NCBI RefSeq assembly: GCF_026571515.1 | Contig: NW_026852306.1 | Span: 62,001-126,000 of the forward strand | Direction: 5' to 3' | From: Ruditapes philippinarum | Lineage: Eukaryota | DNA length: 64,000 nucleotides | In this document: positions 14,845-49,359 of the stretch, piece after piece | How the letters are laid out: each line of letters opens with the position of its first letter | How positions within the stretch are numbered: position 1 is the stretch's first letter | The notes under the pieces: model-generated | What the model saw: the letters and a program-made list of their open reading frames with translations, nothing else | Databases searched by the model: none | What the model was told of the DNA's origin: nothing | Position numbers and translations under genes: made by a program

Positions 14845-17440
14845 TTAAAATGGTCGCCATGGGACTTCTTTTATCACGTGACCGATTTCATTTTCCTTGC
14901 CGTTTCCAATAGTAACAATATCTATACGATTGTCTGCATTATTTTCGTCATTATCCGAACAAGAATCATCCACCTTACTGTAGCCGGAAGACGAACAGTA
15001 CGAGGAGGTGGTTTCAGATGAAGAAGTGCTTGAGAAGCCAGAAGAAGAGCTGGAATCAAGACTTGAATGCACAAATGATGACGTAAGTTCCGGTAGAGCT
15101 TGATTTCCGTTTAAAATGGGTGAATATCCTGAAAAATTAAATTCTGGCAATGGCGATGTGTTAACTGTGTCATTTGGTCTTAGAGGCGTAGAGAGACGAT
15201 GTGTTTGTCTATTTTGATTGAATACATTATTCACATGTTTATTGTGATTTGTCATTTCCTGTCGTCTGCTTCTCGTGAGGAAAGCCTGGTGTAGATGATT
15301 GCTTAGGGAACCAGTCACTGTATCACTTGTGATTTTATTCCTTGCCAAATACGCCACAGCTTCTTGTGCACATGCCTTGTACCCTGCATTATAGGCAGCA
15401 GCTTCTGTTGCCATGGTAACAGATTGTTGTTGTCGTTGTAGCTGCGACAGATGATACACAGTTAAGTCTAAAATGTCTGCCTTGTCAACCCTTGTCATTG
15501 GAGCAGTCTGGAGATGAAAACAAATCGTTAAATGTTACAAAAGTGTTTGCAAAAAAGATTTTAATGTAAGGTGTGTGATATTTATTGGAAACATATATAC
15601 GTGTTCTGCATTGTTTTGTTCGGTTAACCATCATAGTATACACTCACTTAATAAATATATTTTTGTACAGACGAAAATCTAAAGCTTATTCAGTTCATAT
15701 ATAAATACATATTTGTATATTGAAAAATAATGTTGTCATATATTTGACATCCATTTGCTCGACTTATTAGTGATCGGCGTGGTGATCCAAATGAATGACT
15801 TCCTGAATGACTTCCAAATATATATTGGCGAAACATGGCATGTTTAATCTATGCAATATGTTGACATAATTATAGAGAAAACGTAATGCTTCAAACGTTT
15901 TCCAGAAAAGCAGCTACTAATTAGGAACACTTGCGTGTAAAACTTGATGCTTTGGTTATATTATATTACATTGTGTTGAAAAGTCTGTTCGATTAGCTAC
16001 TTCAGAAATGATATTCGTCTTTTCATTTTTCCCCACTCTAAATATTATATATTTTGAATTTCAATTGTACATGATTGCATGCTGCGTAAAACCGAACACT
16101 TATAAAATTACTTACATTTTCTTGAATAGTCTGTGCGATTAGCGACTTCAGAAGTGATATACTTTTGTTCATTCTTTCTCTTCTCTTCTTCTCCACCATT
16201 GGCTTCCGGATCTGCAAGAAGCATAATTTAAAATACTGTGTATGCACGTTGAAATTCTATTGGGCAAAAACAAATAATTTCAAGCACTAAGAAGCGTTTA
16301 AATTGTCCTATACAATATCTATACGCCCAGCTAAACGTTAAACAACGATAACGACATTGCTGTAGTTCTCCGATATGACTGATAGTAAGCAATAAGTAAG
16401 TTGGGGGAGATATGAATTCTGGTAAAGGGAAATCATTTTGATACTATTTATAGATCTATAATATTATTATATATATGCACATTTGTATAAATGTACTATT
16501 ATGCAGTTTAAAAGTTTTGAAACTACGTTATTTGATAGTACTATTACCTAGTAAAGGTACAAAGTAAAAACTCTACATTAAAGATCACTTAACGAGAAAA
16601 AAAATGTGAAGTACAATTAAACATATAGAAGAGGAGGGACTATTTATGATTTTAAAGCCCTTAACATCTAAATAAATCTTATCCCTTGATTGTTTATTTA
16701 AACATTCATTCAATCGGGAGAAATATTTAGATACCGTAACGGTTGTAAAATATCGCATAGCATTAACTAAGTTCAGAGTATCAGCACATTCCCTAGCCAT
16801 AGAAACTGGGAGATATGATGGTACTCTGAGAGAAAATAGATTATGCAAATGCTGTTCAATGGGAGTTTTAGAATCTGAATATCACTTTCTTCTTGTATGT
16901 CCGTTATACAGAGATCTAAGAATGAAATACTTTAAAGGATATTTTTGCAGATGGCCAACACTGAAGAAATTTGAAATTTTAATGTCGACAAATGTTAAAA
17001 GTAATGTTACCAACTTAGCAAAATATATTTACTTTGCATCAAAGTTACGAAATGACAGGTTATCAAATTTATGATGTGTTAATTGTTGTTATATACTAAA
17101 TTTCAAATTAAGTCTCGTACATTATTTTTACATTTTTTTATCGATGAGTAATTAAAATGTCAGCCAAATACGTCATTATGATTGTATTATTTTTTTCTAT
17201 GAACAATTGAAAATGAAGTCTCGTACGTTATTGTAATTGTAAATTTCCAACAGTATTCATATACCCTGTGTAAACCATTTCTCATGTATTTATGTTGTTG
17301 TTATTGCTATAAACTTTGTAAGTTTAAAGCGGAATAAAGTGTATTGTATTGTATTGTATTGTATTGATTGTACATTAAAAGATAAATACCTTTCTTGCGT
17401 AGGACATATCCTGTGAGTCAGATTTCTTAGCTCCGCCCAT
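14845..17440 (-). CDS. HES-like: Hairy/Enhancer-of-split (HES)-family bHLH-Orange repressor, copy A; exons 17440-17390, 16211-16116, 15507-14845; 269 aa; C-terminal WRPF
   Basis: MGGAKKSDSQDMSYARK|IRKPMVEKKRRERMNKSISLLKSLIAQTIQEN|TAPMTRVDKADILDLTVYHLSQLQ...YNAGYKACAQEAVAYL (Orange)...VPWRPF*. Basic-region proline is diagnostic of HES; GT-AG introns in phase 0. Confidence 0.95.
16583..17370 (+). mobile_element. 5'-truncated LINE (RTE-X-like C-terminal CCHC region plus 3' UTR) in intron 1 of HES copy A, antisense to the gene
   Basis: Reads EKYLDTV...RIALTKFRVSAHSLAIETGRYDGTLRENRLCKCC...ESEYHFLLVCPLYRDLRMKYF...LAKYIYFASKLR*, then AATAAA and a (GTATT)n tail at ~17333-17366. Candidate TSD TACATTAAA at 16574-16582 and 17371-17379. 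Clade assignment from motif memory only. Confidence 0.85.
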
Positions 17441-20137: not shown

Positions 20138-22062
20138 ATGGGCGGAGATAAGAAATCAGACACACAGGATATGTCCTACGCTAGAAAGGTATTTATATCT
20201 TTAACTCATGATTCAAGTGATACAGTTTTTTTTATAGATGTTAAAATTTTTAAATTTATTAATCTTCTTCTTTTCTAAAATATGATTTTCCTCTTTAAGT
20301 GAGCTTTAATGTTTGGTATTAATCACAGTATCTTTACTCTTTCCTCTTTCTTTAAAACATTAAAATTATTTTATATTTCTGTCTAATAATAACTAAATAT
20401 CTATTAATATTGCATTTTCTTTTCAGGACTTTACAACAGGAACATATATATTGTAAAATATTATTTTGTAAACCCCTTATGTATTTTATTATTACCTGGG
20501 TGAATAAAGATATTTGATTTGAATTGAATTGAACTAGGTAGTAATTATATCAAATGACGTATTTTCAAAACTTTAAAGCTACATTAATATATTATGTATA
20601 TTATACTACATTTGTATATAAAAATATATATATATGTAGATCTATATACAGTATTAAATGATTTTCCCCAACCAGAATTTCATATTCCCCCCCACCAAAT
20701 TCTTATTGCGAAATAGCTTACTATCAGCCATATCTAAGAACTACTGGCAATAGGGAATTCTCAGGTATTGGGTACACACGCTCTATGTTTTTGGGGTTTT
20801 TTTTGCAGATCCGGAAGCCAATGGTGGAGAAGAAGAGAAGAGAACGAATGAATAAAAGTATATCACTTTTGAAGTCGCTAATCGCACAGACTATTCAACA
20901 AAATGTAAGTTATAATGATATAATTGTTCGGTTGAACGTAGCTTGTAATCATGTACAATTGAAATTCAAAGTATGCCATGTTTCGCCGTTTACGTTTGAG
21001 CCTGATCCCCTCAGGATCAGTCATTCATTTGGAACACCACGCGGATCCTCAGGAAGTCATTCATTTGGAACACCACGCGCATCCTCAGAGAGTCATTCAT
21101 CTGGAACACCACGCGGATCCTCAGGAAGTCATTCATTTGGAACACCACGCGGATTACCAATGAGTTGCCAATGGATGTCAAATTTGTAAAAATATTATTT
21201 TTCGGTATATTTAGATATGAACTGAATAACCTTTATATATATTTATTATGTATATACTAAGATTTTTAATCAAAGAAATTAATACAGAATCAGTAAATAT
21301 GTTTCGAATAAATATTACAAACCTTATATTCAAATTTTCAAACATATATTAAGAATAACACTGTTGTAAAATTTATCGTTTTTTGTTTTTCAACTTCAGA
21401 CTGCTCCAATGACAAGGGTTGACAAGGCAGACATTTTAGACTTAACAGTCTATCATCTGTCGCAGCTACAACGGCAACAACAATCTGTTACCATGGCAAC
21501 AGAAGCTGCTGCCTATAACGCAGGATACAAGGCATGTGCTCGAGAAGCTGTGACTTATTTGGCAAGGACTAAAATCACGAGTGATACAGTGACTGGTTCC
21601 GTAAGCAATCATCTACACCAGGCTTTCCTCACGAGTAGCAGGCGACAGGAAATGACAAATCATAATAAACATGGGAATAATGTGTTCAATCAAAATAGAC
21701 AAACACATCGTCTTTCTACGCCTCTAAGACCAAATGACACAGTTAACATATCGCCATTGCCAGAATTGGATTTATCAGGGTATTCACCCATTTTAAACGG
21801 AAGTCAAGCTCTACCGGAACTTACGTCATCATTTGTGCACGGCAGTCTTGATTCCAGCTCTTCTTCTGGCTTTTCAAGCACTTCTTCAATTGAGACCACC
21901 TCTTCCTACTGTACGTCTTCCGGTTACAGTCAGGTGGATGAAACTTGTTCGGAAAATAACGAAGACGATATAGAAAATTATATAGACGTGGTTTCTATAG
22001 GAAAAGGTAAAGAAAATGAAATCGGTCATGTGATAAAAGAAGTCCCATGGCGGCCATTTTAG
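20138..22062 (+). CDS. HES-like: HES-family bHLH-Orange repressor, copy B; exons 20138-20188, 20809-20904, 21400-22062; 269 aa; C-terminal WRPF
   Basis: MGGDKKSDTQDMSYARK|IRKPMVEKKRRERMNKSISLLKSLIAQTIQQN|TAPMTRVDKADILDLTV...WRPF*. Same exon sizes (51/96/663 nt) as copy A. Confidence 0.95.
20205..20533 (+). mobile_element. LINE-like 3' UTR/tail insertion in intron 1 of HES copy B
   Basis: Segment has no counterpart in copy A. It ends AATAAA-gatatttgatt-(TGAAT)n immediately before homology with the copy A intron resumes (ctaggtagtaattatatcaaat). 5' boundary approximate. Confidence 0.55.
21004..21155 (+). repeat. 36-bp minisatellite, 4 copies, in intron 2 of HES copy B
   Basis: Unit ggatcctcaggaagtcattcatttggaacaccacgc. 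A single related copy lies in copy A intron 2 (~15772-15818, minus strand). Confidence 0.95.
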
Positions 22063-27516: not shown

Positions 27517-29223
27517 ATGAACAAAACCAATGTTACAGGCGGTGCAGCCCCCGGTCCCGGTGTTGGCATACAACTTGACGATGAGGATGACTTTGCCGAA
27601 CGGGATGTAGATAAATGGAACAATGTGCAGAAAATCGTCGTGGTAAGTGTATCTTTAGAGTAGTCATCTCTGCTTATTGACCAAGCCCCCTATTGCATTT
27701 ATATAACATATTAATCAGGCATTGGTAACCAAACTTTGACATTCAATTACTTTAGAATATATTTGAAGCTTTGCACCTCAGCATACAATCATAAAAATGC
27801 TATTTATTCAAGTTAAAGAAATGGAAATAATGAAGAGAATTCCTTTTTTTCCATATCAAAATATATAGTTAGGAGCACAGACGTCACATGATGATGAAAG
27901 TCATATGACGTAACGTCGAAATTCAAATGTAAATATCGGCCGTTACATAGAAAATCAATCGTCATTTTTTCCCTTTCTGTTTTATTTTTAAATTTTCGTA
28001 CCTACGTTCGTTATTGTTTGTCAAAAAATATCAAAATTATACAAAATAATGAACAATAAATTCAAAGCCTAAAAAATATAAAATATCAAAATATTGATAA
28101 AATTGTTTGTGATGGCAGGGATCTCTGTACTAATAAGGGAAGATAATTACGTAGGAGATAATATTCTACGCTTAATGCTGGATTCCAAATGACCAATCAA
28201 ACTAGGAATAACTTTAAATGGAGCACTTTAAATTTTAAAGAACTATTTTCTATGCTGATCCTATTTTATGTGTTCTATTTTTAGATTCTTTATGACGTGA
28301 ACATTGCATTTGCCATTATCCAATCAGTGATAGGCCTACTTCTATTCCTCACTATCCTTGACAAGAACCTGCGGGGAAAATCACAAATGTGGTACCTGTA
28401 TCACTTGACGTTACTCGTTATTTTCACCGGACTTTTTCTTCACCCATTTGCACACGGTGAGAATTATACAAAGGACAAACAGAGTTGTTACTTTTTGATG
28501 TACAGTGCGGAGTATATCTTTTTTGGTGTAGGGATGAACGTTATTCTAGTAAATTTGGAAATATTTTTCACAAAGATTCTTACGCTTCAGAAATGGGAGT
28601 CTAACCCGTTCTACAGATTTTTAATGTCGATGGCGCTCGGGTGGCTTATCGTCTGTATGATTATTTCCCACGTGATTATCAATAACAATTATGGAAGTCA
28701 GGACAAATACAAGTTCTGTTTTGTCCTCAAAGACCTATCAGTTCGACGGGCAAGAATTGTCTTTCGCGCTCTCATACCGGCAATCGTCTGCTTCCTGTTT
28801 TTAATTTGCACCGTAGTTACGTATTACCTGAAACGGTCACGGATCACTTTTACGACAATGACTGGTGAGTTGAAGGAAATCCGGACAGAGAGCCGCGACG
28901 ACGAATCACAATGGCTTATGTGTCAAGTCTTCATAAACATTGTGTATTTGACTCGAGCACTAACCATTGTGGCTTTACACTTCAACGGTATCATACGTAC
29001 TCCGGATGAATATTTAGTTGTTGTATTTGTTATATTTGTTCATGTACAAACACTGTACACTTTACCATTCTGCATGTTTTTCATTTACGACGTGCGCCAG
29101 TCACTGAAATGTCTCCTACTCAAGGTCATACAAAAATTGTCGTTTGGTAAACTAAGGGTAGGAGATGACTTGGAGAATCTGGCTGTAAGTTTTGGAAACC
29201 CATCCCATGTCGGGACCGATTAG
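27517..29223 (+). CDS. Divergent rhodopsin-like (class A) 7TM receptor; exons 27517-27642 and 28285-29223; 354 aa
   Basis: N-terminus MNKTNVT with two N-glycosylation sequons; seven hydrophobic segments; ICL1 KNLRGK..W.YL..L; TM3 Cys (QSCY) and ECL2 Cys (KFCF); TM4 Trp; TM5 Pro (LIPAI); helix-8-like DVRQSL. DRY and NPxxY are degenerate (EIF, LPFCMF). GT-AG phase 0 intron. Confidence 0.8.
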
Positions 29224-38657: not shown

Positions 38658-40561
38658 CTATTCTTTTGACAGACCTAGTGTTTTTTCATACTCTTTAAGC
38701 TGTTCAACAAAACCTGCATTAGGTCGAGCCGATGGTCGTTTACTTTTCACATACGAAAAGGCATCTTCGTATGTCATTTTTTCCGTTCTCATAAGATATC
38801 CGGTTGTGAACGTAGATGCCCTACTAACACCGGCATTACAGTGTAGGAACACGCAACCACTTTGTCTACCTTCGTCAATGAACTTGAAAGTGTCATCGAA
38901 ATAGCTAAGAACTTTTGTATCAGGTGTGTCATTGACCTTGACATTCAGGTATTTGAGTTTGTCTGGGAAATAGTTTTTCACATACGTTCCTATGTTGACG
39001 ATGTGCGTAACTCCATATCTAGCAAGAATATCCCACTCGGCAGCCACATCTTGTGAGCCTGTAAAAAAAGACAAATAAAGCTATCTTTATAAAGAATTTA
39101 AGAGTTGGAATTAAACATTTTAAAAAGTACATACATTGATTTGGCCCTTTCAAGTCCATAAATCTACAAGCCAGTTCAACAAAGGAAACCAAGATATATT
39201 GGTTGCTTATGATTTGCATAGCCTAGGCAAAAACAAATAAAACAGTAAAACTTACTGAATAAAGATACAGAAATATAATGTCAATGCAAGCTTTGCCATT
39301 TAAAAGGGACATAACTCTATAAAACGTGATGGAACAGATTGAAATTATCTGAAACTCTGAAATACATAATCAAGCACAAATATACTAGTGATACACCTAG
39401 GATTGATCTATTAACGAAAATCCCGAAAATGAATTAAGAAAAATAATGATTTTGCAGTAATATCACATAGACAACCAAATATTAATGACTATTTTCACAT
39501 AGGTCCCTTGCACATGCTCAGGTGAATGATAAATGCATATTCTTTTTTTTCAATGCAATGAAAACACATAAAAGTCATTGAAATTAATCTACTGCTGGAT
39601 TATTTTATTTAAGCACAAACTGACAAACTTGTAGCAACATTTACCAAAACTTAGATTGACCATTAAGATCAAATTAGTTTAATCCCTGAAAACTTGACAT
39701 TGATATCAAGACCTTAAAAGGTCTCAAAAATTTATAACATCTTATCTGTTAAATAAAAATTTTGCCTTATAATTTAATGAAGTAAAAAATAAAATCTTAA
39801 CTTACCAAATATGAGATTGTCTCTGATTTCCCCAACTTGAAAGTCCATTAGGACGTCCGCTACAAACCCATACTGGTCTCGGTTAGTGACCTCTGTTCTG
39901 ATGTTTCCAGAGTCATCCTTATACTCCCGTATAACTCTACCATCCTCTGTTCTTACAGCTGTGTCTGAAATAGAAGATGTACTCTGAAATGGAATATTTA
40001 CTCTTAATCATGTCTGAAATACATGCTTACTCTTAATCGTGTCTGAAATATAGTATTTACTTTTAATGATTAGATGACCTTATGTAATATATTTACTCTA
40101 AATGATATTACAAATGAAATATTTACTCTAAATATTGTCTGAAATAGAATATTTACTCTAAATAATATCTTAAATAGAATATTTATTCTCAATAATGTCT
40201 GAAATAGAGTCTTCCACTTATTTATCTTTTTAAAAATATGACTTTTTTACTCATTAAAAATAACAATTAATAATAATTATTATCATTCTCCATTTTAATT
40301 GTTGTAAATGCAAAGTTTCAGATAATATGAATTATTTGTATGCTTGTTCTTTATAGTAGGTAGTTATTTCAGACAATCACAAGTCATTTTATATGCAAGC
40401 TTTGAAGTTTGCAATTATATAAATACTGGTTATAACTACATGTACTTGCTTAGCAAAAAATATTACTAGCAATATACAATAATGATTTTCATACAGTAAG
40501 TACCTGTTTTGCGCAGCTGTTTCTTGTTAAAACTCTGCAACTGTGACAAGAGACTTGACAT
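38658..40561 (-). CDS. DUSP19: Dual-specificity protein phosphatase 19 orthologue; exons 40561-40504, 39964-39806, 39058-38658; 205 aa
   Basis: MSSLLSQLQSFNKKQLRKTDTAVRTEDGR...YGFVADVLMDFQVGEIRDNLIFGSQDVA...VTHIVN...DTPDT...VFLHCNAGVSRASTF...RPSARPNAGFVEQL. Collinear with vertebrate DUSP19 (GYVQDLSSDLQVG...LLLGSQDAA; HCNAGVSR). Phase-1 GT-AG introns. Confidence 0.93.
39964..40212 (-). repeat. ~30-bp tandem repeat abutting the DUSP19 exon acceptor; units contain TTTCAG|A
   Basis: tctgaaa at 39964, 39983, 40013, 40042, 40138 and 40198, within a gtctgaaatagaatatttactctaaataat-like unit. Confidence 0.9.
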
Positions 40562-40859
40562 ACCTGTTTCTTCTGAAATAATAAAAATACATTTCAAATG
40601 ATTTAATGAATACTTCATGTCACAAAATACATATTCTATCAATGAAATAAGGGATTTTTTTTTTCTTTTGTAGCAAAATTCTTGATTGTGATCATTATGA
40701 TATATTTTGTTTTCCATCAAGTGTATTGAACTTGTACAGCATTTTCATTCTTTCAAGTTAATAAAGTGTTCACTATTTCCCCACCCCCAAATAAAGGGTA
40801 GGGCCACATGTCCTAGTATTAAAATAACATATTTAGTGCAAAGTTGTCCCGATAGTTAA

Positions 40860-41047
40860 GGGGAGCGATGGCCTAGTGGTTAAGGTGTCTGCCTCTCAAC
40901 CCAGAGATCATGGGTTTCGAGCCTTACTCGGGTCACGACCATGTTTCTCCATATGACACCAGTACTGGTTGGTTCTAAGAAGTGGACTCGAAAGTGATTA
41001 ATATAAGTTGCAAGAACTTGTTTCGCATTTGAACTAATAAATAAATA
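40860..41047 (+). mobile_element. tRNA-derived SINE
   Basis: A-box TGGCCTAGTGG, B-box GGTTTCGAGCC, tail agtactggttggttc...ggactcgaaagtgatt...gaactaataaataaata. Confidence 0.8.
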
Positions 41048-41153
41048 TGTTTATACCAATTGTTCCGATTTCTTTTGGTCTGATGAAATTAATTTTGTTC
41101 TGGTAAACTTTCAAAGTTCGCCAGACCAACTGTCTAATAAATATTTCATGTCC

Positions 41154-42397
41154 CAGGGTTCTCGGGGACGCTTATTTCGGCGTCCCGGTACGCATGTTTA
41201 TTGCAGCTGGACGCAAATATTTCAGAGCAAGGATTCCACGTACGCTTAATTTTGCCCGGGGACGCATAAACATTACCGATTGTTTACAACCACAAATACA
41301 CAAATGCGTCAGCGCGTGTCAGTCTATAGGTAGGCGGTCCTATGCACATCGACCCGTGAAGCAATTAGCCAATCAGCGATAACGCTTCCGATCATTATCA
41401 CGCAATAGTGATCAGACTAATGTATACACGCGCTGTACAGTACATGTAATTACCAGATATATCACGAGGTGATAATTTTATATCTTTGATCAACAGTTGA
41501 TTGGAAATTAGCAAATTTTACCGACAAAAGGATAAAATTATCGACTATTTACGCAGCAAGTTTAAAGACTGTTTTCTCAAATTACAATTGAGTGTAATTT
41601 TGAATGATTGTCGAATATTTTCGGCATTATAATGATTGTCGAATATTTTCGGCATTTTCTAGGCACAATTTTGCTTTAGTTTCATTCTTGCAAAAACTTT
41701 CTATAAGAGTATTAAGAATTTAAGATATTGTGCCCAAATGCCAGGTACACATACCCTTTTCTCTATCCGAAAATTGATCCCGAACATCGGCGATTTCACG
41801 TTCGCCAGAAACCCTAAAATTTCGCAAAAATTCTCGGTTTCCAAGCCAAACATGCGAATGAATTGTTTCTTTATTATTGAATCAACATTAAATCTTTAAA
41901 TGTCGATCTTTAATTTGCCCCCTTTTGAAGATATTTGCTAAAATAATCATCGATCGGATGAATCTCTTACACACTGTGTGAATCTGTACACGATTTTCCT
42001 ATTCATTCCGCTAAACGCTGCCTATATACATTTACGTTTTTTTTTTTAACAAATACAAACTTTTTGTCTTAAGAGTGGACTTATTTAACCAGAGAAAAAT
42101 TTGATTTGGTATAAAAGTGAAAAAAAAGAAGATTTCCATGGGTTGATGCATTATAATGAAATAATTTCATAATAAATATTAACAACAAAACAATAATTAT
42201 ACTATGTAGTTCAGAGTTTCTTTTGAATAACTATTTACTTTGGAAGTCTCTTGAACATTCAAAATATCAGCAATGCTATTGTGAACATTGAATGACTAAT
42301 CTGTAAACATATTAATTGCGACGTGCTTTTGGACTCCAACTTTTTCAGGGTTGGGAGTCCATGGACTCCATGTTTTAAAGTCCTAGTGAGAACCCTG
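41154..42397. mobile_element. Non-autonomous DNA transposon, CAGGGTTCTC TIRs, 5-bp TSD (hAT5-like?)
   Basis: CAGGGTTCTC ... GAGAACCCTG flanked by TGTCC at 41149-41153 and 42398-42402. Subterminal ggacgc/ggactcc repeats; no transposase. Confidence 0.85.
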
Positions 42398-43964: not shown

Positions 43965-44441
43965 TGTGATAAATATGATTCTTAATCTAACCTGCCGTTC
44001 TACCTTTTTGTTTGCATACTTGTATTTGTATTTGTTTAATTTCAACGATACAAATGGGGTAGATAATAAAAGGGAAGTAACTTTGCAAAATTATTGGTTA
44101 TATTCCGTACTGTACCGTATCAATCCGTGCATAGATTGATTTTGGATGTCCGAGGCGCAGATGGTCTCAACCCGGTACGGAATTAGACCCAACCCGTTGT
44201 AGTCTAGAAAGTAGTTCTTTAAAATTTTGAAGTGGCCCAATTTAAGTCATCTCTAGTTAGATTGGTCATAATTAAAGTGTATTTATTGCATGTGTGTAGT
44301 TTTTGTGTGTTATATGATGTGTTTAAAAGTTGTTTTTTGTGTATTCTCCAGGAACTCATTTGTTGGCGGAAGGATTAAAGATGTACCACCCACCAGCAGT
44401 CAGGAGTTTTCAAAGTGGTGAATTTAAACTGTGTTACAACA
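43965..44441 (+). mobile_element. Possible LTR or LTR-element remnant
   Basis: Begins TGTGAT, ends GTGTTACAACA, contains ATTAAA signals and is less AT-rich than the flanks. No TSD or second LTR found. Confidence 0.25.
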
Positions 44442-45624
44442 GAGTGAAGATTTCTGAAAAAAGTAGATGGCTAACCTATTATATTTTGGGCCTCATTTGA
44501 CTTAAGTAGTGTTGATGTTTAAAGTTGAAGACAGTATATAATTCATCAAGAACAGTGGAATCCAGAATTAAGCCTCAAATGTGACTGATTTACTATAGAA
44601 CAAAGAACACGAAAATTCACCAGGCCGTCACCAGATCAAGATGAATACAAATGTACGTATTATATATAGATGATACTTAGATAAGAAATACATGTTTTTC
44701 ACCGACTGCTTTCCATCACTTTGATTGATCTTGATGAGGGATGCTGGATATGGATGGGGAAAAAATTAATTTTCAAAACGAGAATTTTTAAATAATCTAT
44801 ACATAATATATGCAAAAATATTCAAATGAAGCTGATTTATATATACAAACTGATAAAGTATTATTTTAATGCGTTTACATCCGTGTTTATTAATCAATTT
44901 TATAAAAAAAAATACTCACAACATTAATGTTGTAGACATGTTGAAATATTTGATATAAAGACAAAATTATTTAAATATTTAATTTCATTGAGGAATTTAA
45001 TTCTGAAAATTATTTTCTTTTTGTTTAATTGTAGCCATTTTGTTCTTGCGTGACAATATCCAGTTTGTCATTAAATAAAACGTAATTAAACCAGTTCTGT
45101 AGTAAATTATAAAAAGCTTTTATTTTTGATTTCCCATCAAATACAATATATGTATATATGAACATTCACTCACATGGACAACAATTATAATCAACTATAA
45201 AACACGTATAAATATAACTGTACAGAAATTATAAAAGCAAAGTAAAGTTATTAAAATAAGTTCACTTCAAACACACACAACAGTCAAAAAAAACTGATAA
45301 AACTATGCAGCACTCGATATACTCCACACTTAGACTTTCTATAGTTTGCAAACAACCTTAAAAGAAACTTTGATCTCATAGACCCTTAAACCGTGTTGAA
45401 TTACTTAATCACGTAATGCAAGTGTATGTTTCTCTGTATTGGTAATAATGTTAATGTTCGCTTGGAACGATTAATAATTTTATCAAATTGGAAGACATTT
45501 TGACCAATGTTTAGGTTAGATTTATTTCATTTAAAGAAAAGATATAAAAAAAATCTGCTTCTATGCGATATTTGATGAAGACAGCGATGGATATACAGGA
45601 TGGCATGGAAAGACCGAGATCATT

Positions 45625-48330
45625 TTATTTCAGACAGTATACGTCTGCTTTGTCTGAACGACGCTCCGTCAAAACGAGGAATGACCCATCATCTCGGTTT
45701 GAAATATGGATGTGTTGCGGGCGTGTCAATCCGAGATCACGTGACAGAATCGTCATCACAGAAGCCCCGCCCTCTGATAACATGAGGACATTTGCAGAAC
45801 GGATGGCAGTGACATATACATTATCTTCCCGGTCGACAGCTGTACTATAAGGACGATCAAGCTCTTTATGCGTGAACACGTACAAAACATCACCTCGAGT
45901 TGACATCCGCACAAGAGACCCTTTAGTCCCAGACTGGCCCTCGCAGCAGATGTAGAGCACGTGATCTGTTCTTGAACGAGTAACTGATACAGGTCTCAAG
46001 ATATTAGGATTTTCCCTGGAAGCAAAGTTGACCACTTGAAGCTCTCTGCCATTGTCGTCAAGAAAGGCCACTTGGTTCCCATCATCTTTTGTTGTCACAA
46101 CAAATTTTCCGTCAACAATGGCGATTCCCCAACATTCACGTCGTGTAACTATGCATCTTTGTGTACTCATTGATGACCCAATAACACGAATGACATGAAT
46201 TGTCTTCTCGAGCGGAACCGTTACAGCAATTTCATTTGAAGATAAACATGCGACATTCCACGGTTCCTTTGCCATATCTAAATGGCTTACATATGAAAAC
46301 TCGTGATTGAAAAGTTTGACGCGACTGTTGTTACAATCGATTAGAATAAGTCTTTTATCAGGAAGTTCAACGGAGCCAGTAATTGTGCATTCTCTTATGT
46401 CTCCTTCAACCTTAATAACCACACTTTTCAGTTTAGTGCATTGTTTCGGCGTAGTGTTGCTACTTGTTATTGGTTCAAATGTTAATGTTTTTGAATTACA
46501 CTTGTTCTGAGCTGAACAGGCGGAGTAAATGGAAGAATTTTCGTAAAGTGGCGACGCAGGGTTATCGTCAGCTTGTGTTGGTCGGAATAAACGAGCGAGT
46601 TGATTGATGGCAGACGAAACGATAGGTTTTACTTCGGGGCTCATGCTTGATGCAGATGAAGATCTATGACGAAACAGAAATTTCGTATTTCCATTGGCAC
46701 TCTCATCATTTTCAGCACGTTCAGACATACGCTTACTACTAGAAATGTCACCAACTCCCGACATTACATTAACATAATGCCAGACACGGTTCTTTGGTTT
46801 TTCACTTGTTGGAGGTTTAGTCAAAGCTCCGGGTAATGTCTTTGCCTCAACGTCACCGGGTGTTTCGCAGCCGTTTATTCCAGCGGCATCTTGGTTGGAG
46901 TTTGCTTCACTTTGACCAGTTGAAAATACCGAATCTTCGTCATCACTCAAATCAACAACATTTTCCTTTGCTTCGTTTGTTGGCGCAATATTGATCTCCG
47001 TATTGTGACTATAGTCTTGGTTTCGTTTAGGACTCGAGCATGATCTAGGCAGAAAGTGACGTATTCCATGGATATCTGGCCGTTCAGGACGTGGTCGGAC
47101 TACCGGTGTTGGAGCAGTGGACTCAATAGGCACGGTTTTTGGTCTCTTTGGCTCTTTATGCGCGCGATGTGGTCTTTGTTCCGTATTTGTTCCAGACTGG
47201 CTCGAAGTTGCGTCATTTAATGTTGGACGCGCTATTATTATCGCTCGTGGCGAAACATGACGTATAGGCGATCGTGAAGGGAGGTCATCAGCAGAAACGT
47301 CTCGAGGTGAAGGGATGAATGACTCGTTCAGAGTATTGCCCCTTGACATTAATTCTGGGGGTACCTTCAAGTTTGATTCAAAGTGATTTACGTTGACACT
47401 TCCTAGTTTACTAAAGGAGTTTAGAAAGGCAAGTAGTTCATTTTCAATGGCAAATTCTACTTTGATAACTTTTATATTTGAGTGACACCCGTGTATGAAA
47501 GATGATTGACTTTTGATGTCATTCTCGATCGTTGAGATCATCTCGAACGATTGTGACGAGACAGGAAGCTCACTTAATGTTTTTCCTGACGTTTCTATCT
47601 CCGCCTTTATCCGCTCGTATTTTTCACATTGAGCTTTCAAAACAACAACTTCTCCGTCGTGCTGTACATTAACTTGATCTTTGATGTCAGTCTCAAAGGA
47701 ATTAAGCAACGCTTCTACTTTCCCGCGAAAATCTTTTACTTCCGTCATAATGGACGTCTTTTCAGTAGACAATTGCTCTATGTTCGACTTCAGATGCAAG
47801 ATGGCATCATTTAGATAAACTAGTAGGTTTTCTACGTCAGTCTTGACGATTGTGAATCTGGTTGTGAATTCAGCGTGCTCTTCAATGTCGAGAACTTCGC
47901 ACTGGCGATGTGCATTTTTGAAACACTTGCTGCACAATTTGACATTGTGTTCGACACAGAAGAATTCAATCAGTTTGCCTGCATGCTCTGCACAACGTTC
48001 AACAGCTGTCGGAGTTTCGCGTTTTTCGAGCATTTCATGGAAGCTTGAGTCAAGCAACGAGACAAGCAAATGGTTCAGCGGGAACAAAGTAGACCAGGTG
48101 TCAATGCGGGTAAAGGCGCGTGGTGCAGGTGTTTGCGCTCGACAAACTGGACATGGGAAGTCGGACACTAAGACCCTCTCACGTGACTTGTTGACGATGT
48201 ATGAATGAAGGCAGGATTCACAAAGTGTGTGTTGGCATGGTAACATGCGAGGTGTCTTGTATATGTCCATACATATTGGACAGCATAAAATGTTGTCCTG
48301 TGGAGAGTGACTTGACTTCGTGGTAGCCAT
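45625..48330 (-). CDS. Single-exon-CDS TRIM E3 ligase (RING, B-box2, coiled coil, ~300-aa S/P-rich linker, NHL-like beta-propeller), TRIM2/3/56-like; 901 aa
   Basis: RING CPIC...LPCQHTLCESC...CPVC; B-box CAEH...FCVEHNVKLCSKC...HRQC; heptad-rich region; C-terminal repeats (LILIDCNNSRVKLF, PWNVAC, CWGIAI, RPVSV, RPYSTAVDREDNVYV). Acceptor tttcAG about 35 nt upstream of the ATG. Confidence 0.92.
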   Translation of the reverse strand: MATTKSSHSPQDNILCCPICMDIYKTPRMLPCQHTLCESCLHSYIVNKSRERVLVSDFPCPVCRAQTPAPRAFTRIDTWSTLFPLNHLLVSLLDSSFHEMLEKRETPTAVERCAEHAGKLIEFFCVEHNVKLCSKCFKNAHRQCEVLDIEEHAEFTTRFTIVKTDVENLLVYLNDAILHLKSNIEQLSTEKTSIMTEVKDFRGKVEALLNSFETDIKDQVNVQHDGEVVVLKAQCEKYERIKAEIETSGKTLSELPVSSQSFEMISTIENDIKSQSSFIHGCHSNIKVIKVEFAIENELLAFLNSFSKLGSVNVNHFESNLKVPPELMSRGNTLNESFIPSPRDVSADDLPSRSPIRHVSPRAIIIARPTLNDATSSQSGTNTEQRPHRAHKEPKRPKTVPIESTAPTPVVRPRPERPDIHGIRHFLPRSCSSPKRNQDYSHNTEINIAPTNEAKENVVDLSDDEDSVFSTGQSEANSNQDAAGINGCETPGDVEAKTLPGALTKPPTSEKPKNRVWHYVNVMSGVGDISSSKRMSERAENDESANGNTKFLFRHRSSSASSMSPEVKPIVSSAINQLARLFRPTQADDNPASPLYENSSIYSACSAQNKCNSKTLTFEPITSSNTTPKQCTKLKSVVIKVEGDIRECTITGSVELPDKRLILIDCNNSRVKLFNHEFSYVSHLDMAKEPWNVACLSSNEIAVTVPLEKTIHVIRVIGSSMSTQRCIVTRRECWGIAIVDGKFVVTTKDDGNQVAFLDDNGRELQVVNFASRENPNILRPVSVTRSRTDHVLYICCEGQSGTKGSLVRMSTRGDVLYVFTHKELDRPYSTAVDREDNVYVTAIRSANVLMLSEGGASVMTILSRDLGLTRPQHIHISNRDDGSFLVLTERRSDKADVYCLK

Positions 48331-49359
48331 TCGAAGTGTATTGAGCTACGTCTAAGACATCTATCTGAAAGGAGATTGAAGATCGGGTGAGCGGAAAGAT
48401 ATCATTGATAAAGTGGAATAAAGATATGCTGTAGTGGCCACTTAATTTACATGTGACATACAAATATTTGCTTATATTAAACTATTATTCTGTGCCAAAT
48501 CATATCTTGCCTTGCAGATCAAAATTTAATATTATTTTTATATTTGTGCAGATAAATACATGTAGAAAATTATACAATGATTTAGTCGTACTCAGTAAAA
48601 AGTTAGAAGTGATAATAACGTCATAATCGACGCCATATTTGAACAGGAACGAAAGGGCATTGTAGTGTAATCGTATTATTTTTATTCTATCTCTTCTAGT
48701 TTTTAACCGAAATGATTCGGCATTAATTTTTAATTGTTGAAAGATATTTGGTTAGAGGTAAGATTTTGGTAAAAGCGATAAACGTCTTTGCTCATATAGC
48801 TTTTTGTAAGGCAAGACCAAAATTGCTAAATTGTAAATAACCTTAAGATAAGTCGTATTTACTCATTTGTTCCTTTTTCTACAAATTGCTTATACATATG
48901 CTTTATTATTTTGCTCCCCTCGCCGCCGGTTAAAACATCAATATAATTTTATTTCGTTTCCTTCACAGAGCATGTTCGTTACATAACGTATAATTCCCGC
49001 AAAACTTTTATTGATTATTTCTTTGAAGGTACTTCCATCGAGTGAATTCAATGTTAGGGGATATTTTCTGATGCCCTTAATTATGCGCGCGACATCATGC
49101 TAAGCACAAGTTGTATGATATTGATTTTCATGTCAAACAAAGCGGCAATGGGATTTTTTTTTGTATTTCATTAGTCAATACTGTTGATAATGAGACAGAC
49201 AGATGTTAACAGGCATTTCAGATATATTAAAATGTATTACCATTTTTTGCCATATGATTCACCAAAAAGATTTAGATGTGAATTATACGCTTTATTTGTG
49301 ATTGATAAGTAACTATTTCTAGATATGTCAACAATGTGTGCCTAATTATAATATATTAA

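Follow-up and report, generated by a model that had tools for sequence, protein, structure and literature searches.

Why does a phosphatase carry, ahead of its catalytic domain, a peptide that reads like the actin-binding part of a beta-thymosin? The question is raised by the DUSP19 gene of the clam Ruditapes philippinarum, located on the minus strand of a 64,000-nucleotide stretch of contig NW_026852306.1 (positions 62,001 to 126,000, referred to below as the window), where an earlier note, made from the sequence alone, had pointed to a beta-thymosin/WH2 motif at the N-terminus of the protein. The peptide is real: the frame runs from an ATG at 40561 to a donor site after 40504 and on into an open DUSP19 of 205 residues, and the motif is present with exact spacing, is conserved in the family, and lies outside the catalytic fold. 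The thymosin/WH2 reading of the motif stands, but the note had missed that the motif makes up only half of a larger module that continues into a beta-meander. We regard it as probable, at roughly 0.7, that this module would bind monomeric actin (G-actin) in the thymosin/WH2 mode and thereby tether the phosphatase to actin.

The clam protein begins with an amphipathic helix, followed by F-x-K-x-x-L-R-K-T-D-T and a conserved beta-hairpin. Numbered from the motif leucine (Leu16, position 0), phenylalanine is at -5, lysine at -3, and threonine at +3 and +5, which is the spacing of thymosin beta-4 in PDB chains, as the earlier note had claimed, and also of the clam's own thymosin; the helix hydrophobics at -11 and -8 (Leu5 and Leu8) are present together with Phe11 at -5. 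Exon A (40504..40572, minus strand) encodes the helix with Leu4, Leu5, Leu8, and Phe11, Lys13 of the linker, and Leu16-Arg17-Lys18-Thr19, and exon B (39806..39964) supplies the end of the motif, Asp20-Thr21. The note had assigned the peptide its own exon of 58 nucleotides, a length that is correct when counted from the ATG (40561-40504), but the exon is probably 69 nucleotides long, and because its boundary cuts the motif, leaving D-T and the better-conserved hairpin to exon B, the idea of an exon of its own is not meaningful. The pattern F.K..L[KR]KT occurs once in the six frames of the window, and 300 copies of the window simulated with an order-3 Markov model contain nine occurrences (0.03 per window); since the pattern was picked after the match had been seen, the profile tests weigh more. 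Exon A alone matches a single Pfam family, Thymosin (E 0.011, 16 bits), over profile positions 6-19 or 6-24 of 39, and gives no match to the Pfam WH2 profile.

An N-terminal profile of 38 positions was built from 62 DUSP19 N-termini, leaving out the most thymosin-like member, a chiton protein (P0022) that has 11 straight residues in common with thymosin beta-4. Searched against 177,635 PDB sequences, this profile gave 14 matches at E<=10, and ranks 1-7 are thymosin beta-4/beta-9, ciboulot chimeras, an N-WASP construct, and ciboulot, with E values from 4.6e-6 to 0.097, followed by the next match at E 0.58; the seven are not independent, because several of the chains share the thymosin sequence. 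Reciprocally, a hidden Markov model (HMM) made from clam thymosin repeats only reaches at least 10 bits in 28 of 119 DUSP19 N-termini, including the clam protein at 10.8 bits, compared with none of 3570 shuffles and none of 664 windows from catalytic domains. Alignment with seven clam thymosin repeats by hhalign has a probability of 95% over 21 columns, and when the window and 100 loci were translated in six frames and scanned with the DUSP19 motif profile, exon A ranked first, followed by three thymosin repeats. A search of the N-termini with Thymosin and WH2 profiles, which the earlier note had proposed, is positive for Thymosin in 18 of the 62 and for WH2 in three (best E 0.0014) at E<=1, every other Pfam family being found once, although none reaches the Thymosin cut-off. 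The clam thymosins are encoded by a multi-repeat gene with at least six repeat exons (G000:C2039:91257-111017; L012-L015, L017, and L019) and a single-repeat gene (C1265); the genome also holds clusters of intronless, divergent actin genes (G000:C15251 and G000:C2263; L001-L006) with 75-81% identity to conventional clam actin. An origin of the DUSP19 module by exon shuffling from a thymosin gene is unsupported, and was rejected because the exon has its 3' end within the motif (+4), where thymosin repeat exons extend to the L-P segment, and because the module predates animals.

The homologue set combines 71 proteins that a word-based search recovered for the catalytic exon and the best 150 of 52,389 matches from a profile search covering 1.84 billion representatives. 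Among 216 proteins, 160 have the DUSP19-type catalytic signature, and 132 of these have at least 55 residues upstream, the 28 short ones being left out. The N-terminal profile is matched at 10 bits or more by 123 of the 132, an upper estimate, since 62 of the proteins collected had gone into the profile itself and the second search was biased towards carriers of the module; the other nine are apparently truncated gene calls, divergent members, and one protein that is not DUSP19. Conservation was counted in a hand-picked alignment of 119 homologues, in clusters under 50% identity. The motif leucine is present in 117 and Thr+5 in 106, both helix hydrophobic positions are occupied in 110, and Thr or Val is found at +3 in 99, Lys or Arg at +1 in 88, and Lys or Arg at -3 in 82. 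Position +2 is Lys, Arg, or His in 55 and Pro in 26, and Phe-5 is present in 46. The combination of both helix hydrophobics, the leucine, Lys/Arg/Asn+1, and Thr/Val/Ala+3 is found in 78/119, and in the hairpin Gly+12 (117/119) and Glu+17 (109/119) are equally well kept. As a family pattern, the exact F-x-K-x-x-L-[KR]-K-T-[DE]-T of the earlier note does not hold, since it fits only 8 of the 119. About half of the family has a WH2-like linker that is one residue shorter and lacks the phenylalanine (50 members have Phe or Tyr at -5 and 69 do not), and the two linker classes are scattered over a poorly resolved tree of 131 catalytic domains.

Named carriers of the module, in part from 30 identifiers that were looked up, include molluscs, arthropods, nematodes, sea urchin, sponge, and cnidarians (among them Hydractinia), the vertebrates bird, lizard, and bichir, and outside the animals the amoebozoans Physarum, Clastostelium, Heterostelium, and Entamoeba and the breviate Pygsuia. 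The motif is thus conserved in invertebrates and beyond, where the earlier note had named a lack of conservation across invertebrate DUSP19 as a refutation, and to judge from this distribution the module is older than animals. A Luapelamoeba protein (P0154) was dropped as a carrier, its module score being only 3.1 bits. Among 22 candidates of greater length (383-2000 residues), none scored with the one query used for the module, which is weak evidence. Short DUSP19 forms of 148-169 residues from sponge and birds retain the N-terminal module (P0222, P0223, P0227, P0228, P0233, P0234, and P0243), and the five bird forms among them, which have no precomputed DSPc match, may be module-only isoforms.

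The four solved DUSP19 entries comprise the catalytic domain only, and the structural alignment to the solved catalytic fold begins at model residue 68, so that the module is separate from the core fold and not buried in it, which the earlier note had named as a refutation. In an AlphaFold2 model of the Mercenaria orthologue (P0003), the module consists of a helix (residues 16-21), a short turn (25-27), and three strands (32-36, 42-47, and 53-57). In the clam protein, the conserved hairpin T21-x-V23-x-T25-x-D27-G28-x4-E33-x5-G39 (39906..39962, minus strand) corresponds to the predicted strands of the three-stranded meander, which takes the place of the thymosin C-terminal E-K-N-x-L-P segment and second helix, neither of which is present. 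The meander is followed by a linker, G-F-V-x-D-x-x-x-D-[LF]-Q (39837..39869), that leads into the catalytic domain and, with a mean top-residue frequency of 0.70 (n=119), is the most conserved segment outside it. Matches to the catalytic domain filled the fold searches, which therefore say nothing on residues 1-65; in the ESM Atlas, the structure search returned DUSP19 clusters first, and every match in the feature search was below 0.9 and uninformative.

The rival that survives best, although we consider it unlikely, is a small, self-contained domain of helix and beta-meander, either packed against itself or the catalytic domain, with a part in regulation or dimer formation, or docking a partner other than actin, such as MKK7, the likeness to thymosin being convergent or a leftover. 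The predicted local distance difference test values of the module are high (81-91), and the predicted template modelling score rises to 0.76 with 119 sequences from 0.69 with 35; a score near 0.7 is, however, about what we estimate for a rigid domain of 150 out of 217 residues alone, and the solved catalytic domains are complete without the module. The hairpin Gly and Glu match the motif in conservation but lack a thymosin counterpart, and a scaffold role towards MKK7 has been reported (PMC6941053; papers are cited here from parts of their text). What such a domain leaves unexplained is that the only significant PDB matches are actin-binding peptides, and that the Lys, His, or Pro at +2, the Thr or Val at +3, and the two linker lengths resemble clam thymosin repeats and published WH2 lists.

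For the actin-binding reading, a structural model can be drawn from known complexes. In the WH2 binding mode, the helix lies in a cleft that actin forms between its subdomains 1 and 3 (PMC5792643). By analogy with such structures, the helix face formed by Leu4, Leu5, Leu8, and Phe11 would occupy this cleft, and L-R-K-T would follow subdomain 1 with its basic residues near, or pairing with, actin Asp24 and Asp25. More tentatively, the meander would substitute for the C-terminal half of thymosin, and the catalytic domain, 35-40 residues further on, would be led towards subdomain 2; because of this replacement, capping of the pointed face as in thymosin is not expected. Lys14 of thymosin beta-4, to which the DUSP19 lysine at -3 corresponds, is said to strengthen binding, in work by Didry and co-workers from 2012. 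The DUSP19 N-terminus is likely to function like the N-terminal half of a beta-thymosin. Actin binding would serve to place or gate the phosphatase, by localisation, substrate presentation, or sensing of G-actin, and not to buffer bulk actin, with tethering as the most economical reading of the effect on catalysis. A bolder proposal, which we hold to be doubtful, is that DUSP19 is an ancient actin-directed phosphatase predating the split between amoebae and animals, in which the hook loads the enzyme onto G-actin and the meander points the active site either to actin, with phospho-Tyr53 of subdomain 2 as one example, or to a substrate bound to actin, so that activity reads the G-actin pool. 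Phosphorylation of actin on Tyr53 is known from work on Dictyostelium and neurons. The module may also preserve an enzyme-embedded ancestor of the thymosin-type helix spacing.

A partner other than free G-actin, namely the barbed end of the filament or an actin-related protein (Arp2/3, dynactin Arp1, or nuclear Arps), appears distinctly improbable. With the meander in place of the thymosin C-terminal half, and an alignment that ends after 21 columns, the bound geometry must differ from that of thymosin, and certain WH2 motifs bind filaments too (PMC4314737), but in a filament the adjacent D-loop stands in the way of a WH2 helix, and DUSP19 is not found in the available text or the four searchable supplements of a screen for filament motifs (PMC13364712). 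A chance match, or a mere basic patch that localises the protein or docks a kinase from within a variable N-terminal tail, is suggested by a motif that is short, lysine-rich, and in its exact earlier form shared by just eight homologues, but is largely refuted, and hardly credible any longer, given the shuffle and window controls, the reciprocal profile matches, and the conservation of Leu0 (117/119) and Thr+5 (106/119) among clusters under 50% identity.

Several observations weigh against binding of actin by the module. Judged by profile membership, the DUSP19 N-terminus is not a beta-thymosin: exon A, at 16 bits, lies below the Pfam Thymosin cut-off of 24.8 bits, as does the Mercenaria N-terminus (P0003) at 18.2 bits, and no member reaches it, the best E among the 62 N-termini being 0.00019. 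The thymosin signal stems mainly from the 50 members with Phe or Tyr at -5; a profile made from the other 69 finds thymosin repeats at background level only, and 17 of these 69 score above the 99th shuffle percentile compared with 42 of the 50. On the thymosin HMM, most of the named amoebozoan and breviate members stay close to zero, at 0.8 or less, the exception being Physarum at 9.2, and the link to them therefore runs via the family alignment. In orthologues from birds, lizard, and bichir, the pattern recurs with Gln instead of the consensus Thr or Val at +3, and the high local confidence and rising global score of the model would suggest that the module may be partly folded or docked by itself. 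In favour of the actin-binding reading, RNA interference (RNAi) against human DUSP19 in HT29 cells gave an unusual actin texture (PMC1794559, legend to Fig. 3c), but this was obtained with one reagent, and the authors leave its cause and specificity open. The DUSP19 role given in the review text available is that of an MKK7/JNK scaffold only (PMC6941053).

Elsewhere, DUSP19 is described as a JNK-pathway scaffold and a VEGFR3 phosphatase, and the available portion of the VEGFR3 account makes no mention of actin. Titles and abstract openings among the matches listed contain no link between a WH2 or thymosin motif and DUSP19/SKRP1, and a search combining WH2, dual specificity phosphatase, and Dictyostelium had 0 matches. 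The first text part of a survey of divergent WH2 motifs, together with motif searches of its table, yields no DUSP19-like peptide (PMC4314737), DUSP19 is not named in one 10 kb supplement of PMC6503952, and the motif is not named in the available parts of PMC6941053, PMC5618612, PMC9639322, PMC13577060, PMC6539644, PMC8664455, PMC6264519, PMC13507181, and PMC5424802. A DUSP19-actin link could already be present in human phosphatase interactome data or interaction databases. Fly Mkp is the DUSP19 orthologue according to Table 1 of PMC6264519; its hit in a cell-mechanics screen was not counted as support, because 80 of the 214 genes screened were positive.

The gene that encodes the clam module is the only strong locus of its kind among 14 genome matches, and its reading frame comprises three exons with GT-AG ends. 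The closest named relative is a Mercenaria DUSP19-like protein (84% identity), and the best PDB match of the orthologues, by structure as well as by sequence, is human DUSP19. Exon C (38658..39058) contains the dual-specificity phosphatase domain (Pfam DSPc, E 2.9e-30) and the stop codon. The catalytic loop H-C-N-A-G-V-S-R (38820..38843) is intact, with its H, C, G, S, and R invariant across the 119 homologues, and the general-acid Asp is present together with H-C-x-x-G-x-S-R. The 5' boundary of exon A rests on an acceptor that ends at 40573, which would place the exon start 11 nucleotides ahead of the ATG, and on the Mercenaria orthologue, whose alignment (residues 8-33, 73% identity) takes in the codons that precede the Met; the exon is for these reasons probably 69 nucleotides long, of phase 1-1, and the ATG at 40561 may be an internal Met. 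A pattern search for an upstream coding exon gave four candidates, none convincing, and no such exon is seen in the RNA reads, at the low depth on this gene. The B-C junction is present in four RNA reads from one of four runs; the A-B junction is absent from the reads, at a depth over exon A of about 1-2 or less. The 3' end of intron A-B holds a 30-nucleotide tandem repeat in 7.4 copies (39983-40208) with five copies of an acceptor-like TTTCAG ahead of the acceptor that keeps the frame open, and alternative splicing here could drop the join between motif and hairpin, or break it.

Beyond the gene, transcribed interspersed repeats lie at 40850-42300, which begins with a tRNA-like stretch, and at 43970-44670; RNA depth is high there on both strands, and many of the reads fit only in part. 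An intronless frame of 906 codons (45628-48345, minus strand) encodes RING and B-box domains and is TRIM-like, and two near-identical HES/hairy-type genes lie in divergent orientation at 14848-15534 (minus) and 20662-22059 (plus), both with an Orange domain and the second with a visible bHLH. A hydrophobic frame of 312 codons (28285-29220, plus strand) resembles a seven-helix receptor by eye, without a Pfam match at E 0.001.

The proposal offers a cheap and direct test of the role of DUSP19, a human phosphatase for which few substrates are known and of which no solved structure includes the first 60 residues. If true, it would establish a new coupling of dephosphorylation to the actin monomer pool, would account for the orphan actin-texture observation after RNAi, and would add an architecture of WH2 plus beta-meander to the known actin-binding motifs.

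Within the DUSP19/SKRP1 family, the clam gene is a member by its best structural and sequence match, its intact catalytic loop, and its single best locus, and the N-terminal module is absent from the four solved structures. Compared with beta-thymosins (thymosin beta-4 and ciboulot; PF01290), the helix, Phe-5, the basic residue at -3, and L-[KR]-[KH]-T-[ED]-T agree, the spacing being that of thymosin in the clam and roughly four of ten homologues (Phe-5 in 46/119), but DUSP19 replaces E-K-N-x-L-P and the C-terminal helix by the meander, and its motif is a single copy, fused to an enzyme, and below the Pfam cut-off. As in the WH2 proteins WASP, WAVE, and shootin-1 (PF02205), an amphipathic helix and L-[KR]-x-[TV] are embedded in a larger protein, the Phe-less linker of DUSP19 is one residue shorter, and L-R-P-V/T variants occur as in shootin-1. 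Unlike in those proteins, the motif precedes a conserved meander and a catalytic domain, with no conserved proline-rich or acidic region, and PF02205 is matched at E<=1 by just three of the 62 N-termini and not by clam exon A. The Pfam WH2 profile is known to overlook true WH2 motifs (PMC4314737). Functionally, the nearest parallels are Slingshot, the PPP1R15-PP1-G-actin complex, and Phactr-PP1, where the place or specificity of a phosphatase depends on actin, as is proposed here for DUSP19. In those systems, the link to actin is made by filament binding, by a regulatory subunit separate from the enzyme, or by RPEL repeats, whereas in DUSP19 a thymosin/WH2-type motif would sit on the catalytic chain itself.
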